Assembly: GCA_046759165.1 (NCBI GenBank) | Contig: JBHIBS010000040.1 | Coordinates: 1 to 12,851 of the forward strand | Direction: 5' to 3' | Length of the DNA stretch: 12,851 bases | From: a bacterium | Lineage (GTDB): Bacteria; UBA6262; WVXT01 | Made by a program: the position numbers and the translations under genes | In this document: piece by piece, positions 1,297 through 10,503 of the stretch | How positions within the stretch are numbered: position 1 is the first letter of the stretch | How the letters are laid out: every line of letters starts with the position of its first letter | The notes under the pieces: generated by a model | Told to the model about the DNA's origin: nothing | Databases searched by the model: none | What the model saw: only the letters and a program-made list of their open reading frames with translations

Positions 1297-2373
1297 TTAG
1301 GACCCCAGGATTCTCCCCTTAATCAATTCCTCTGCTATTTCAACTGCGTTTAGAGCAGCCCCCTTGAGGAGGTTATCGCTTACTATCCACATGTTGAGTC
1401 CATTTGGTATCGACTGGTCTTCTCTAATGCGACCAACAAAAGTCTCTTCTCTATCGGCAGCCTTTGTCGCTAATGGATACTTTAGTTTACTGGTGTCATC
1501 TACAACCACAACTCCCTCTGCTTTTTTCAATGTCTGGCGAGCTTCTTCGACAGTAATTTTTCTCTCTGTCTCAATATTTACTGCTTCGGAGTGTCCACGA
1601 AAAACAGGCACTCGAACACAGGTGGCTGTGATGGCAATGGAGTCGTCCCCTATTATCTTCTTTGTCTCGTTGACCATCTTCATCTCTTCCTTTGTGTAGC
1701 CGTCCTCCAAAAATATGTCTATCTGGGGAATGCAATTATAGGCAATCTGGTGGGGAAAGGTTCTTGGCTTTGCTTTTTTGCCAGAGGCAATATTTCCGAC
1801 CTGCTCTTTCAGTTCAACCACTGCCTTCTCGCCTGCGCCAGAGACCGCCTGATAAGTGGAGACAACTATCCTTTTAATCCTGGCTCTCCTGTGTAACGGT
1901 GCTAGGACGACTACCATTTGAATTGTTGAGCAGTTAGGATTGGCGATGATTTTCTTATCTTTAGATAGAGTATGAGGATTGATTTCCGGGACAACCAGAG
2001 GCACTTCAGGATCCATCCTCCAAGCACTCGAGTTATCAATCACAAATATGCCTTCCTGAGCAGCAAGTGGAGCATACTCTTTGGAAATAGAGGCGCCGGC
2101 AGAGAATAGTGCAATATCGAGTCTGCTTGAGAGGCTCGATTTTTCTGCCAGAGGAGAAACTTTAAATGATGAAGGATTAAGTTCCTCAACTGCAAATTCT
2201 TTCCCTTTAAATTTTAGTGTCTTTCCTCGAGAACGCTCGGAGGCAAGCAGTCTCAGGTTAGCTACTGGAAAATTCCGCTTCTCCAGCATTCTAACCATTT
2301 CCCTGCCTACAAGTCCGGTCGCTCCCACTACAGCAACATTAAAGGAAAAAGGGGACAGGCTACTTTTTCTCAT
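1297..2373 (-). CDS. asd: Aspartate-semialdehyde dehydrogenase; first 9 codons lie inside the transposase element
   Basis: VAVVGATGLVG Rossmann motif, IDNSSAWRM, catalytic NPNCST, TYQAVSGAG, CVRVPVFRGHS, DNLLKGAALNA. Confidence 0.97.
   Translation of the reverse strand: MRKSSLSPFSFNVAVVGATGLVGREMVRMLEKRNFPVANLRLLASERSRGKTLKFKGKEFAVEELNPSSFKVSPLAEKSSLSSRLDIALFSAGASISKEYAPLAAQEGIFVIDNSSAWRMDPEVPLVVPEINPHTLSKDKKIIANPNCSTIQMVVVLAPLHRRARIKRIVVSTYQAVSGAGEKAVVELKEQVGNIASGKKAKPRTFPHQIAYNCIPQIDIFLEDGYTKEEMKMVNETKKIIGDDSIAITATCVRVPVFRGHSEAVNIETERKITVEEARQTLKKAEGVVVVDDTSKLKYPLATKAADREETFVGRIREDQSIPNGLNMWIVSDNLLKGAALNAVEIAEELIKGRILGS
2347..2368 (+). repeat. 22-bp inverted repeat, left copy (AAAAGGGGACAGGCTACTTTTT)
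   Basis: Exact reverse complement of 3059-3080. On the minus strand it encodes (R)KSSLSPF of Asd. Confidence 0.97.
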
Positions 2374-3041
2374 TCCTTCCCCACCCTCTTCTTCGGTCTT
2401 CCCCTCGGTCTAAGAGTAGATTCCAATCCCAGCTCTTTACTTACTTGTATCTGCCACATTGATGTGCCATAGGGGGATTGTCGATTAACACTCTGACGAA
2501 GCCCCTCCAAGTCCTTTTCTGTTAGAGGTTCATCCACATATCTATTCCAATCTTGAGGCAATTCTATGGGGATTTCATCAACTAATAAATGCGATCTTTC
2601 ACCAATTGCCCCTCTGTGAGAAGACCACGACCAATCCTTAGCTGAATTAACTAGACCAGCCCTCACTGGATTACCCTCAACATACCTCAGCACCGCCAAT
2701 AAATGATTGTCTTCTTGTATAATAAAACTTTTAAAACGCCCCTGCCATATGTGGCCGCTGGTTCCATAATGCCGATGATAACGGCGCACATGACTGGTCA
2801 TTAGCCATTGCATCCCTTTGTTTAGCTCTTCAGCCTGAATGGGCACTACAACCATATGAAAATGGTTCGGCATTAGACAGTATGCAAAAATCTTTACAGC
2901 ATACCGAGCCTTTGCCTCCCTCATTAAATCAATAAAAGCTTCGTAATCTCGGTCTTTGTGAAAAACCTCCAGCCCGCCATTTCCACGGTTAAGCACATGA
3001 TAAACAAAGCCATCAACCAAGCCTCTTGCAATCCTCGGCAT
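2370..3041 (-). CDS. REP-associated tyrosine transposase-like protein (Y1/HUH, IS200-like superfamily)
   Basis: MPRxAR...YHVLNRGN N-terminus, AYCLMPNHFH (HUH), GHIWQGRFKS, RYVEGNPVRAGLV (catalytic Tyr region), WSWSS, and a basic C-terminal RPRGRPKK tail. These are typical RAYT-like motifs and the ORF is intact. Confidence 0.93.
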   Translation of the reverse strand: MPRIARGLVDGFVYHVLNRGNGGLEVFHKDRDYEAFIDLMREAKARYAVKIFAYCLMPNHFHMVVVPIQAEELNKGMQWLMTSHVRRYHRHYGTSGHIWQGRFKSFIIQEDNHLLAVLRYVEGNPVRAGLVNSAKDWSWSSHRGAIGERSHLLVDEIPIELPQDWNRYVDEPLTEKDLEGLRQSVNRQSPYGTSMWQIQVSKELGLESTLRPRGRPKKRVGKE

Positions 3042-3058
3042 GAGCTAATTCCCCAAAT

Positions 3059-3080
3059 AAAAAGTAGCCTGTCCCCTTTT
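3059..3080 (+). repeat. 22-bp inverted repeat, right copy (AAAAAGTAGCCTGTCCCCTTTT)
   Basis: Exact reverse complement of 2347-2368. Contains GTAG at 3064-3067 and ends 17 bp upstream of the transposase ATG. Confidence 0.97.
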
Positions 3081-3117
3081 CTTTTGTCCAACAAACTTTT
3101 GGCATTCCATCTCATCC

Positions 3118-4173
3118 TTAGCTAATAAACTTAGTGATAAGGTCGCCAACCTCAGATGTGGAGAGACCCATCTCTCCAGCACTCAGCCCCTTTATCTTGC
3201 CAGAAGATAGGGCTTTTCGGATGGCTCCATCGATTAACTTTGCTCCCGCCTCCTCACCCAAATTTTCGAGCATCATCTGCCCGGCAACTATGGCGGCTAT
3301 AGGATTTATTACATTCTTACCTGCATATTTTGGGGCACTTCCATGAATTGGTTCAAACATACTTACACCTTCCGGGTTGATATTTCCTCCAGCTGCCACT
3401 CCCATACCACCCTGAATGATTGCTCCCAGATCGGTTATGATGTCCCCAAACATATTGCAGGTGACAATAGTATCAAACCACTCAGGATTCTTAACGAACC
3501 ACATACAACAGGCATCAACAAATGCATGGTCTTTCTCAACCTCGGGATACTGTTCTCCCACCTTGTAGAATACCCTCTGCCAGAGGTCATGAGCAAATGT
3601 AAGAACATTCGCCTTATCTACAAGAGTTAACCTCATCTTCCTCTTTCTCTTCTTTGTTAATTCAAATGCATACCTGATGCACCTTTCCACACCGTTTCTG
3701 GTATTGACCATCTCTTGAACTGCAACTTCCTCTGGCGAGTCTTTTTTCATAATCCCGCCAATGCCTAAATAGAGACCCTCAGTATTTTCCCTTACAACCA
3801 TGAAATCTATATCCTCCGGCTTTTTACCTTTAAGGGGAGTTGAAACTCCAGGATAGAGAATAACTGGCCTGAGGTTGATATACTGGTCGAGCCCAAAGCG
3901 CAATTTGAGTAGAAGTCCTCTCTCTAATATGCCTGGCTTTACTTGGGGATGGCCAACTGCTCCTAAATATATGGCATTGAGTTGCTTCATCTCTTCAAAT
4001 GGAGAATCGGGAAGGACTTCCCCTGTCTTCAAATACCACTCGCCACCGAAATTATAAGTTGCGGTCTCGTATCTAAACCCTGCTTTTTTTGAAGCAGCAT
4101 CTATGACTTTGAGACCTTCTCTAATGACTTCCGGACCTACTCCATCTCCAGGAATGACCCCTATTTTATACAC
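3118..4173 (-). CDS. leuB: 3-isopropylmalate dehydrogenase
   Basis: [49 protein letters not shown]; sits in a leu operon. Start revised to GTG at 4173, preceded by GGAGG (ORF track start 4203). Confidence 0.93.
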
Positions 4174-4208
4174 CCAGAACCTCCAATGTACATCAAACCG
4201 CAAATAAG

Positions 4209-5983: not shown

Positions 5984-6001
5984 AAAGAAACCACAGAACC
6001 A

Positions 6002-6089
6002 GTTTAGAAGTTGATATGTTGATAAGGAAAAAATTTCTACTCTCAGAACTTATCACCTTATCGACGCATCAACATATCATCTTATCAAC
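6002..6089. repeat. Two convergent arrays of a GTTGATAA-like octamer forming a long imperfect inverted repeat
   Basis: 6002-6025: GTTTAGAA GTTGATAT GTTGATAA. 6050-6089: TTATCACC TTATCGAC GCATCAAC ATATCATC TTATCAAC (reverse-complement orientation). Confidence 0.9.
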
Positions 6090-7671
6090 TACCCCTTTTC
6101 CCTAACTTTTCTCTTGCCACCAGCCTATTGAGAGCATTGGTATAGGCTTTGGCACTGGCTTCAATTATGTCTGTCGATGTACCTCGACCGGTTACTGTCT
6201 TTTTCAATTCGTCAGCACGGGCTGGACCAACTGGTGCAATCTTAACTGTAACCTCACCGAGAGCATCCTTCCCCACAGAAACCGACCTAAGACTGTAATC
6301 GATTAGCCTACACTTAATATTTGTAATTCGGTCTATTGCCCGAAAAGCAGCATCCACTGGACCATCACCACAGGAAGCCTCCTGCAGGACTTCACTCTTG
6401 GCCACCTTTCTGGGTGCAATCAACCTCCTTAACCTCACGGTGGCAGTAGGAACCACTTTGTTTCCAGTAGTTACATTTATATACTCCAACTTGTAAATCT
6501 CCGGGATAAGAGATATCTGATCTTCGACTATAGCCTCGATGTCCTCATCAAAAATCTCTTTTTTCTTATCAGCAAGCAATTTAAATTGCTGAAACGTCTT
6601 ATCCACTTCCTCATTGTTCAATTTATAACCTAACTCTTGCAACTTCTTCCGAAAAGCATGGCGTCCCGAATGTTTTCCTAAAACAAGCCTCCTACCTCCC
6701 AGTCCAACCGATTCTGGAGTCATAATCTCGTAAGTCAATCTTTCCTTGATTACTCCGTCTTGGTGAATTCCTGCTTCATGAGCAAAAGCATTAGCGCCGA
6801 CGATAGCCTTATTGGGCTGAACGATTATGCCGGTAAGTTTACTGACCAAGCGGCTTGTCTTGGCAATCTGCTTTGTCTCGATATTGGTATAGAAAGGAAA
6901 CAGGTCTTTTCTCGTCCTCAAGGCCATCACCACTTCTTCCAGTGAGGCATTTCCCGCCCTCTCTCCGATCCCGTTAATAGTACACTCAATCTGTCTGGCT
7001 CCAAGGGAAATAGCTTCTAGTGAATTAGCTGTGGCCAGTCCTAAATCATTGTGGCAATGGACGCTAATAATGGCCTTGTTAGAACTGGGAACTCTAGCAA
7101 CTACCATCCTGATTATTCTTCCAAACTCTTCTGGCAGGGCATAGCCCACAGTATCTGGAATATTGATTGTAGTAGCACCAGCTTCGATTGTCTCCTCCAC
7201 TACACGCGAGAGGAAGTCTGGATCGGTCCGGACAGCGTCTTCCGCCGAAAACTCTATATTCTCGGTAAATTTCCCCGCATATCTTACTGCAGCCACAGCC
7301 TCCTTAAGGACCTCTTCTCTTGACTTTTTCAATTTATGCTTTAAGTGAATGTCACTTGTAGCAATGAAGGTATGAATGCGCGGGTTCTTCGCATATTTTA
7401 TTGCATCCCAGCAGACATCAATGTCTCTCTTTGTAGCCCGTGCCAACCCAACAATTACCGGCTTCCTAATCTTTCGGGAAATCAGCTTCACTGCCTCGAA
7501 ATCCCCTGGCGAAGATATGGGAAAACCAGCCTCAATAACATCCACACCCAATCTCTCTAATTGTTCAGCGACTTCTATCTTCTCCTTTATATTCAGACTC
7601 GCTCCTGGAGATTGTTCTCCATCTCTTAAGGTTGTATCGAATATTAATATTCTCTCCTTCTTTAATGCCAT
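6085..7671 (-). CDS. leuA: 2-isopropylmalate synthase
   Basis: [57 protein letters not shown], and a C-terminal regulatory domain ([15 protein letters not shown]). Start revised to ATG at 7671 after GGAGGGG (ORF track start 7746 overlaps pssA). Confidence 0.95.
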
Positions 7672-10256: not shown

Positions 10257-10288
10257 GTTGATAACATGATATGTTTATAAGTTGATAA
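10257..10288 (+). repeat. Tandem GTTGATAA-like octamer array (4 units)
   Basis: GTTGATAA CATGATAT GTTTATAA GTTGATAA; same unit as the arrays at 6002-6089. Confidence 0.85.
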
Positions 10289-10503
10289 GTATTTGTTTCT
10301 TCTCTTTTCTATTTCAGTTTGAAATAGCTGTGAAGAGCTTTTCGAATTTTAGCCAAAAAAGGGGAGGGCTATCTTCTTTCAAGCAAAGATCTGTTCCACG
10401 TCGCAATTGCGGGTGAGTTTATTTTTGCGCCCTGGAGAGTCCGAAGTTTTTTGGCGTTAAAAAATTCCTCAGCTCAGCAATGAACAAATTATCTTTCAAA
10501 TCC

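Follow-up and report, generated by a model that had tools for sequence, protein, structure and literature searches.

REPtrons, in which a REP-associated tyrosine transposase (RAYT, or TnpA_REP) is found with repetitive extragenic palindromes (REPs), bacterial interspersed mosaic elements (BIMEs) and REP doublets forming hairpins (REPINs), have reportedly been studied by Nunvar in 2010, by Bertels and Rainey in 2011 and by Messing in 2012, the last of which is said to be the source of the structure PDB 4er8. RAYT-like genes with long terminal inverted repeats (TIRs) were named TIRtrons, and their enzymes TIRYTs, by Di Nocera, De Gregorio and Rocco (2013, PMC3733652). The accessible part of that paper states that GGGGWSAS is a consensus common to many TIRtron repeats, that these are positioned at comparable distances from their genes, and that the repeat families occur as single, dimeric and grouped copies. 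The accessible part of Quentin et al. (2018, PMC6006769) places 20 of 26 TIRYTs in TnpA-Y1 subclass 2.1, with the consensus GGGG[AT][CG]A[CG], reports no REP-like sequences near subclass 2.1 genes, and gives Y---NP as the signature of class 2 TnpA-Y1. In that paper subclass 2.1 ranks second in size among the groups of Y1 nucleases and occurs in 14.9% of strains, and its TIRYTs are described as having C-terminal domains that resemble a helix-turn-helix (HTH; Bac_DnaA_C, HTH_23 or HTH_28). Here we describe an element of this kind in a bacterial DNA stretch of 12,851 bp (the window), which is the complete contig C40 of the genome G000 (a 1.885-Mb assembly of 165 contigs with 42% G+C) and in which a RAYT-like transposase gene stands between leuB and asd.

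We read this locus as a TIRtron, that is, a single-copy TIRYT gene (TnpA-Y1 subclass 2.1, a long relative of the RAYTs) framed by two inverted 22-nt units that would act together by the mechanism proposed below, and we put the probability of this reading at roughly 0.78. The two units form a perfect inverted pair, with AAAAGGGGACAGGCTACTTTTT at positions 2347-2368 on the plus strand, its exact reverse complement at 3059-3080, and 690 nt between them. The downstream repeat begins 1 nt past the transposase TGA and the upstream repeat ends 17 nt ahead of the ATG. Each unit is made up of an A-tract, GGGGACAGGCTAC and a T-tract, and the GGGGWSAS consensus is present both in the window repeat (GGGGACAG) and in the repeat of a paralogue elsewhere in the genome (GGGGTCAG). 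An earlier note on this DNA had described an intact RAYT-like HUH/Y1 gene between perfect 22-bp inverted repeats inside an operon, with no obvious target duplication. Both statements were borne out, as the sequence, a repeat finder and a pattern search agreed on the arrangement, and no direct target duplication was seen on inspection of the sequence flanking the insert. That the inverted repeat might be a product of chance or of assembly, and unrelated to the gene, is an explanation for which we found no supporting point. The 22-mer has two matches in the window at up to three mismatches, a number of at least two was reached in none of 200 dinucleotide-preserving shuffles, and the same arrangement was found in 36 of 40 homologues from independent assemblies; we therefore consider that explanation refuted.

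The locus resembles the described TIRtrons in having a RAYT-like HUH/Y1 gene within terminal inverted repeats rather than GTAG-tagged hairpins, and in having GGGGWSAS repeats that lie a short, fixed distance upstream of the open reading frame (ORF) and at or over its 3' end. Further similarities are the moderately abundant repeat families with single, dimeric and grouped copies, the long protein with a C-terminal extension and, shared also with subclass 2.1 as a whole, a low gene copy number with divergent paralogues within one genome. The earlier note had suggested a poorly described and possibly novel class of element. That suggestion has been overtaken by the literature, since the class was already named TIRtron/TIRYT in 2013 (PMC3733652) and subclass 2.1 in 2018 (PMC6006769), as stated in the accessible parts of both papers. 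The window element belongs to a described class, and what our analysis contributes is comparative detail that leaves the classification unchanged. The 26 published TIRYTs may already include the clade of ~220-aa proteins with the GGGGACAGGCTAC unit that is the subject of this analysis.

The protein encoded by the gene (P0001) matched Pfam Y1_Tnp with an E value of 1.5e-13 and barely reached NCBIfam REP_Tyr_transpos (80.1 bits for a cut-off of 80). Its sole sequence match among solved structures was PDB 4er8, the E. coli TnpA_REP (E 3.7e-4). The AlphaFold model of P0001, from a 37-sequence alignment, had a mean predicted local distance difference test (pLDDT) score of 91, and its top fold match was again 4er8_A (E 9.8e-9), followed by TnpA of ISDra2 and IS608 (ranks 2-27). 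Residues invariant in the alignment include H60, H62, Y120, E122, N124 and G214. Based on the model, the enzyme is predicted to have the TnpA_REP/IS608 fold with both the HUH motif and the tyrosine intact. The motif Y120-VEG-N124-P125 corresponds to the Y---NP signature of class 2 TnpA-Y1, which distinguishes the window protein from the IS200/IS605 enzymes with their class 1 signature. When the full P0001 sequence was searched (the C-terminal domain alone was not), no Pfam HTH family was matched, unlike the HTH-like C-terminal domains of subclass 2.1 TIRYTs in the accessible part of PMC6006769. Residues 140-223 form a conserved helical extension, with confidently modelled helices at residues 165-170, 175-187 and 194-204, that ends in GLESTLRPRGRPKK. 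A GRP tripeptide is present within the final 30 residues in 35 of 40 full-length homologues. The RGRPKK tail of P0001 has what we take to be a resemblance to the core of an AT-hook, a term that we did not find linked to RAYTs or TIR-bounded tyrosine transposases in the literature searched. Because the repeat unit is framed by A and T tracts, we speculate that this conserved tail may read them.

Homologues of the gene were identified widely, and their flanks provided the main comparative evidence. A Y1 match was present in 24 of 41 related genomes, and all seven of the ~220-aa relatives examined were bounded by perfect inverted repeats, whose cores differed (GGGGACAGGCTAC, GGGACAGCGACC, GGGGACACAATAC, GGGGACACGTACC and GGGGACAACTACC). 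Longer Y1 homologues (286-336 aa; L016, L018-L025) showed no flanking inverted repeat of at least 10 nt in the scan, and seem to be organized differently. A database search returned 7,889 homologues; the best 120 were 69-94% identical to P0001, were 218-259 aa long and labelled only "transposase", and had as their sources assemblies with such labels as Nitrospirae, Aerophobetes, Deltaproteobacteria, Omnitrophica and Elusimicrobia. Scanning species-representative genomes gave 59 loci, which were pooled with the two genes of G000 and those of its relatives. Loci were dropped if their ORFs fell outside 205-240 aa, had internal stops (L053, L067), or ran off the contig, or if a flank was shorter than 60 or 40 nt, which left 40 full-length homologues. 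Flanking inverted repeats of at least 17 nt were found at 36 of these 40, and the strict GGGGWSAS motif at 22. The possibility, raised in the earlier note, that homologues would lack comparable repeats was thus not realized. The downstream unit of most members extends 8-10 nt into the ORF, for which it provides the last lysine codons and a TAG stop.

Among the 24 homologues that were at least 60% identical to P0001, the upstream arm holds GGGACAGGCTAC in 18, and a further four have one- or two-base differences in at least one arm. Seven such loci were compared with the window gene at the DNA level, and their ORFs were just 64-83% identical to it. In the comparison of G000 with its relative G005 both repeat units are identical, yet only 156 of 223 third-codon positions agree, and more broadly the 13-nt core is identical beside proteins of 61-82% identity in assemblies labelled with many phyla. 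The units stay identical beside diverged ORFs, and are therefore under selection.

The arrangement of the unit was also examined elsewhere. In five genomes with a close homologue, the 13-nt core occurred 2, 3, 15, 37 and 37 times (controls, 0-1), with one gene-sized pair, spaced ~707-713 nt, in each. All 19 inverted pairs with members within 100 nt of each other were ordered GGGGACAGGCTAC ... GTAGCCTGTCCCC, so that the GGGG lies outside, and none had the opposite order. Twelve regions were fetched, comprising ten inverted doublets, one triple and one direct tandem. Each of the ten doublets gives a perfect stem of ~24-26 bp, closed by a loop of 3-9 nt or, in a single case, of ~25 nt, with energies between -28 and -41 kcal/mol. 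A perfect stem is also formed by the inverted pair of the triple (-41.5 kcal/mol), and the direct tandem gives no such fold. G000 itself has two doublets, at C16:13968/14052 and C32:1986/2069, whose units are ~62 nt apart; their folding energies are -28.5 and -26.9 kcal/mol, respectively, compared with about -11 and -9 for their shuffles. Both of these doublets and the pair flanking the window gene share the GGGG-outside polarity. Since the gene-flanking pair has the polarity of the doublets, the transposase gene appears to occupy the loop of a split palindrome. The earlier note had offered two options for the ends of the element: that they pair with each other, or that they are non-hairpin sites. 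The first gained comparative support from the tight palindromes elsewhere. We also considered whether internal deletion of the cassette could have produced the doublets, as with miniature inverted-repeat transposable elements (MITEs), and rejected this, as the doublet spacers share nothing with the inner ends of the cassette.

The element is similar to REPtrons in its fold and catalytic motifs, in having a single-copy gene flanked by an inverted pair of a short repeat with further copies scattered between genes, in the cognate repeat of each paralogue, and in doublets that form long hairpins as REPINs do. It differs in that a unit by itself does not form a GC-rich palindrome with GTAG in front of it, in that the repeat copies number in the tens rather than hundreds, and in the length of the window protein, which exceeds that of E. 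coli TnpA_REP (165 aa) by ~60 residues. Neither flank of the gene has the GTAG-preceded palindromic hairpin of a classical REPtron. The earlier note had emphasized the GTAG within each repeat, an emphasis that we have abandoned, as GTAG is missing from the repeat family of the paralogue (family B, below) and from most variants, including those beside relatives; the portion of the repeat that is conserved is the GGGG(A/T)(C/G)A(C/G) half. At two loci from metagenome-assembled genomes of Vicinamibacterales (L069, L074; 39-44% identity), each flank is a perfect 47-52-nt palindrome composed of two inverted units, an organization intermediate between TIRtrons and REP-flanked REPtrons.

Because TnpA_REP and IS608 act on single-stranded hairpins, we propose, by analogy with these enzymes, that the two inverted units would pair on single-stranded DNA and form a stem that is recognized by the enzyme. 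The loop of the paired units would be the gene or, in the doublets, the short spacer. The enzyme would then cut and rejoin the DNA at the paired units, and units would be copied to new sites, mostly just past stop codons.

The leuB-asd site provided an opportunity to compare occupied, remnant and empty states of one position, as leuB and asd are adjacent in all 11 genomes of the order that were examined. In G005, which belongs to another genus, this site is occupied by a gene of 82% identity, and the repeats are identical. G001 and G006 retain only the downstream unit and the last 12 and ~23 nt of the gene, respectively. G003, G004, G007 and G008 have unit-free spacers of 97-108 nt and an asd that starts ATGAAAAAATATAAT (MKKYNV), and the spacers in G009 and G010, from another family, are 36-39 nt. 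G002 is masked by runs of N of about 100-500 nt at the very positions of a repeat or cassette, both here and at a second site, C13, that is considered below (its C5 spacer). The leuB-side spacer of G000 aligns with the empty sites until ~5 nt from the upstream unit, and G006 rejoins the empty-site sequence 3 nt past the downstream unit. As homology to the empty sites breaks and resumes beside the units, these mark the ends of the inserted segment. The empty-site comparison proposed in the earlier note therefore placed the boundaries of the insert at the repeats, not away from them.

The comparison also revealed a change in asd. Its ancestral leader and start are gone in G000, G005 and G001, and the asd frame now starts at an ATG sharing bases with the stop of the transposase gene (ATGA in G000), passes through the unit (MRKSSLSPF) and continues into the old codon 4. 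G001, although without the gene, keeps that ATG and the unit, 8 nt past the leuB stop and behind a GGAG, which fits the use of this ATG as a start; we infer that the ATG at 2373 is the asd start of the window. A derivation of the ATGAG before the downstream unit from the ancestral asd start, ATGAAAAAA, was considered, and rejected because G006 carries both sequences. In the reading that we favor, the window copy is old and fixed, and would be read through from the leu operon and coupled translationally to asd by the ATGA, and its downstream repeat would have become the 5' coding end of asd, a part of the element that can no longer be lost.

Elsewhere, the cassette lies between unrelated genes, among them gatA and gatB, an aldehyde ferredoxin oxidoreductase gene and a response regulator gene, BamB-like propeller genes, sugar epimerases and glycosyltransferases. 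Among the 24 homologues of at least 60% identity, the upstream ORF was co-oriented with the transposase gene in 18 of 21 cases and the downstream ORF in 17 of 22; at two loci (L043, L050) the downstream ORF begins 4 nt before the transposase stop, as at the window locus. The cassette has therefore been inserted many times and has crossed phyla. It is single-copy per genome, and at the window site it is old.

These data could also be accommodated by an autonomous insertion sequence, similar to IS200/IS605, that is still active and transposes as the whole of repeat, gene and repeat. The varied neighbors of close homologues with the same core, and the spread of 61-82% identical proteins over assemblies labelled with many phyla, together imply that the cassette travels from genome to genome in one piece, and the coincidence of the insert ends with the repeats is also as such an element would have it. 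The element shares with the TnpA of IS608 and ISDra2 the HUH/Y1 fold and the lack of a target duplication, and a single-strand mechanism is presumed for both. However, IS200/IS605 elements have multiple near-identical copies and distinct end hairpins, whereas G000 has one gene copy per repeat type, each of the five genomes with a counted core has one gene-sized pair, and the ends are symmetric, with no distinct left and right subterminal hairpins and no tnpB. In addition, the same leuB-asd site is occupied in two genera and holds decayed remnants in two more, and excision would take away the asd start. We consider this explanation improbable.

A genome-wide count of the 22-mer, as proposed in the earlier note, showed a dispersed family of 8 copies, and there is a related family of 23. 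The unit of the window (family A) has 8 copies at up to three mismatches, six of which are exact, and the family B unit, AAAAGGGGTCAGAGTCATTTTT, has 23, of which 16 are exact, five have one mismatch and two have two; reversed controls gave 0 for both. A strict scan of the genome for an A-tract, GGGGWSAS, 4-6 nt and a T-tract returned families A and B only. The full-length paralogue, at C4:49789-50475, is 34% identical to P0001 (tblastn) and its own repeat is GGGGTCAGAGTCA, with 23 copies versus 8 for the window repeat. It is bounded by an inverted pair of family B units, and its TGA stop lies within the downstream unit; each enzyme is therefore framed by its own cognate repeat variant. Unlike the window copy, the C4 paralogue has a perfect TTGACA-17-TATAAT promoter of its own, placed after the upstream unit and ahead of the ATG. 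The C4 cassette lies ~20 nt past what appeared by eye to be a tRNA gene (region C4:49633-49788). In all, there are three Y1 matches in the genome, with 34-41% identity to P0001. The third, at G000:C118:2067-2435, is a partial gene at one end of a G+C-rich contig of 2.5 kb. It contains a single in-frame TAG, is ~40% identical across residues 86-204, and could be either a degraded copy or contamination from binning.

Although ORFs of at least 110 aa cover 87% of the genome, the 31 unit copies are almost all intergenic. Three copies are at contig ends and have no assignable upstream ORF, and the counts of gene context use the other 28. Of these, 21 read AAAAGGGG... in the orientation of the upstream ORF (four of the seven exceptions are second arms of inverted pairs), and 11 are positioned -1 to 15 nt past the stop codon of that ORF. 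The two families include two doublets, one tandem and one cluster.

Such positions raise the alternative that the repeats are mainly host signals, such as bidirectional terminators or sites for the stabilization or processing of mRNA, with the nuclease kept for a service to the host; the 23-bp duplex of the two units around the gene in an operon transcript could, for example, be a site for RNase III. The orientation of the copies and their proximity to stop codons would suit this explanation, as would the tight doublets elsewhere, which are GC-rich stems between A and T tracts and have the shape of a bidirectional intrinsic terminator. Both the minimum-energy and the centroid RNA fold of the minus strand (window positions 2320-3110) pair the two units over 23 bp around the whole ORF, although the RNA fold from leuB to asd was no better than those of shuffles (z -1.1) and single units have no terminator stem. 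An operon transcript folded in this way would hold a long, perfect duplex adjoining the asd start. The invariance of HUH and Tyr across the family argues for a maintained DNA-cleaving activity, and a separate repeat variant for each paralogue is as expected for pairs of enzyme and substrate. We judge it unlikely that host signaling is the main role of the repeats; such a role can, however, be compatible with the TIRtron reading.

The history of solo units was followed at two sites. At the C13 site the unit is present in G000, G004 and G005, degenerate in G006, and absent from G001, G003 and G008; no target could be defined for the inserted segment, as the orthologous spacers were too diverged and repeat-rich. 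At the C6 site right-hand anchors were found in only two of seven relatives. Classical REPs of GTAG plus a hairpin (GTAGC[AG]GCAAAGC...GCTTTGC) crowd the intergenic spacers of this lineage (L129-L133, around G000:C13:34667-34743), and two 13-mers of such REPs have 13 and 11 copies in G000 at up to one mismatch (controls, 1 and 0). These classical REPs are a third repeat family beside the two TIR families.

Several observations weigh against the TIRtron reading or parts of it. A model in which two units must pair leaves the spread of single units unexplained, and most copies are single: among the 23 copies of family B there are one doublet, one gene-flanking pair and one tandem. As the earlier note had correctly described, a unit in isolation pairs just weakly with itself (a stem made of A-T pairs; -4.6 kcal/mol, DNA parameters). 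GTAG, which is guide-like in classical REPs, is not conserved among the repeat variants and, in the doublets, is inside the stem, a geometry that differs from that of 4er8. The automatic scan detected no inverted repeat beside four of the 40 homologues: at L047 both arms are there, the second lying 270 nt downstream, at L052 and L065 there is a single arm, and at L015 neither is present. For asd, the start at 2373 rests on conservation and on the absence of another plausible start, the counts of gene context rest on crude calls of ORFs of at least 110 aa, and no Pfam AT_hook match was found in P0001. Finally, the biochemistry covers TnpA_REP of groups 2 and 3 only, according to the accessible part of Corneloup et al. 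(2021, PMC8266576), where the TIRYT class goes unmentioned, and no experimental work on the TIRYT class was found in the literature searched.

The features of the locus are collected in Table 1. All of the long ORFs of the window are on the minus strand. The closest named relatives of its LeuB, from Aerophobetes and Elusimicrobia, share just 72-74% identity with it. No sigma-70-like promoter or intrinsic terminator was found at the gene borders between leuB, the transposase gene and asd, and the transposase gene is therefore probably transcribed by read-through from the leu operon. Rfam gave zero matches in the window at gathering thresholds. Palindromic repeats of the type TTGATA(T/A)GTTGATAAG are present at 6001-6090 and 10257-10289, in the leuA-leuC and ilvN-ilvC spacers; a 17-mer of this palindrome has five genome copies at up to two mismatches (control, 1), one of them beside a leuD-like paralogue on C13, and it may be an operator for genes of branched-chain amino acids.

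Table 1. Features of the transposase locus and its operon, with window coordinates.
Feature	Position	Strand	Evidence or remark
Gene order: ilvB, ilvN, ilvC, psd, pssA, leuA, leuC, leuD, leuB, 223-aa ORF, asd, cbiQ		-	Pfam and NCBIfam
leuB, upstream operon neighbor	3118..4203	-	NCBIfam NF002898, 503 bits
leuB-proximal spacer	3081..3117	-	Matches empty leuB-asd spacers of relatives until ~5 nt from repeat
Upstream inverted-repeat unit	3059..3080	-	Gene strand AAAAGGGGACAGGCTACTTTTT; 37 nt past leuB stop, 17 nt before transposase ATG
TIRYT gene, HUH/Y1 tyrosine nuclease (P0001, 223 aa): catalytic core and C-terminal extension	2370..3041	-	
HUH motif, H60-F61-H62	2856..2864	-	H60 and H62 invariant in the 37-sequence alignment (A1)
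Catalytic Tyr motif, Y120-V-E-G-N124, with P125 next	2670..2684	-	Y120, E122 and N124 invariant in A1
C-terminal RPRGRPKK tail, residues 211-218	2388..2411	-	G214 invariant, R215 and P216 nearly so in A1
ATGA overlap, transposase TGA sharing bases with asd ATG	2370..2373	-	ORF coordinates and sequence
Downstream inverted-repeat unit	2347..2368	+	Gene strand AAAAAGTAGCCTGTCCCCTTTT; codes for residues 3-9 of the asd frame
asd, aspartate-semialdehyde dehydrogenase	1297..2373	-	NCBIfam NF011456, 489 bits; N-terminus MRKSSLSPFSF instead of ancestral MKKY

To the described class, this analysis adds two cognate pairs of enzyme and repeat in one genome, a core that stays fixed over phyla, the strict polarity of the doublets, a single site seen occupied, as a remnant and empty, and an asd start that the element has probably taken over. 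Three of these, namely the unchanged 13-nt core across phyla, the GGGG-outside polarity and the use of a repeat as the beginning of asd, were not found in the accessible parts of PMC3733652 and PMC6006769. The locus and its relatives form a clean comparative data set for the design of experiments on TIRYTs, for which a fixed core beside a diverging enzyme, two cognate enzyme-repeat pairs in one small genome, natural hairpin substrates of strict polarity, and the several states of the leuB-asd site are all usable assets.

If our reading is correct, the locus would be a tidy example of a selfish cassette that has been locked in by supplying the translation start of an essential gene. A broader scenario, which we offer tentatively and regard as doubtful, is that a TIRYT clade with an almost universal core, GGGGACAGGCTAC, and an RGRPKK tail that reads A/T tracts spreads between phyla as a gene-in-hairpin-loop cassette, lands past stop codons in operons, and is made irremovable because its downstream arm gives the following gene, often an essential one, its start codon and initial residues. 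If this scenario were true, it would represent a route to domestication through addiction by translation start, and the "TIR" would simply be one half of a palindrome like that of REPs, a view that would bring TIRtrons and REPtrons together.

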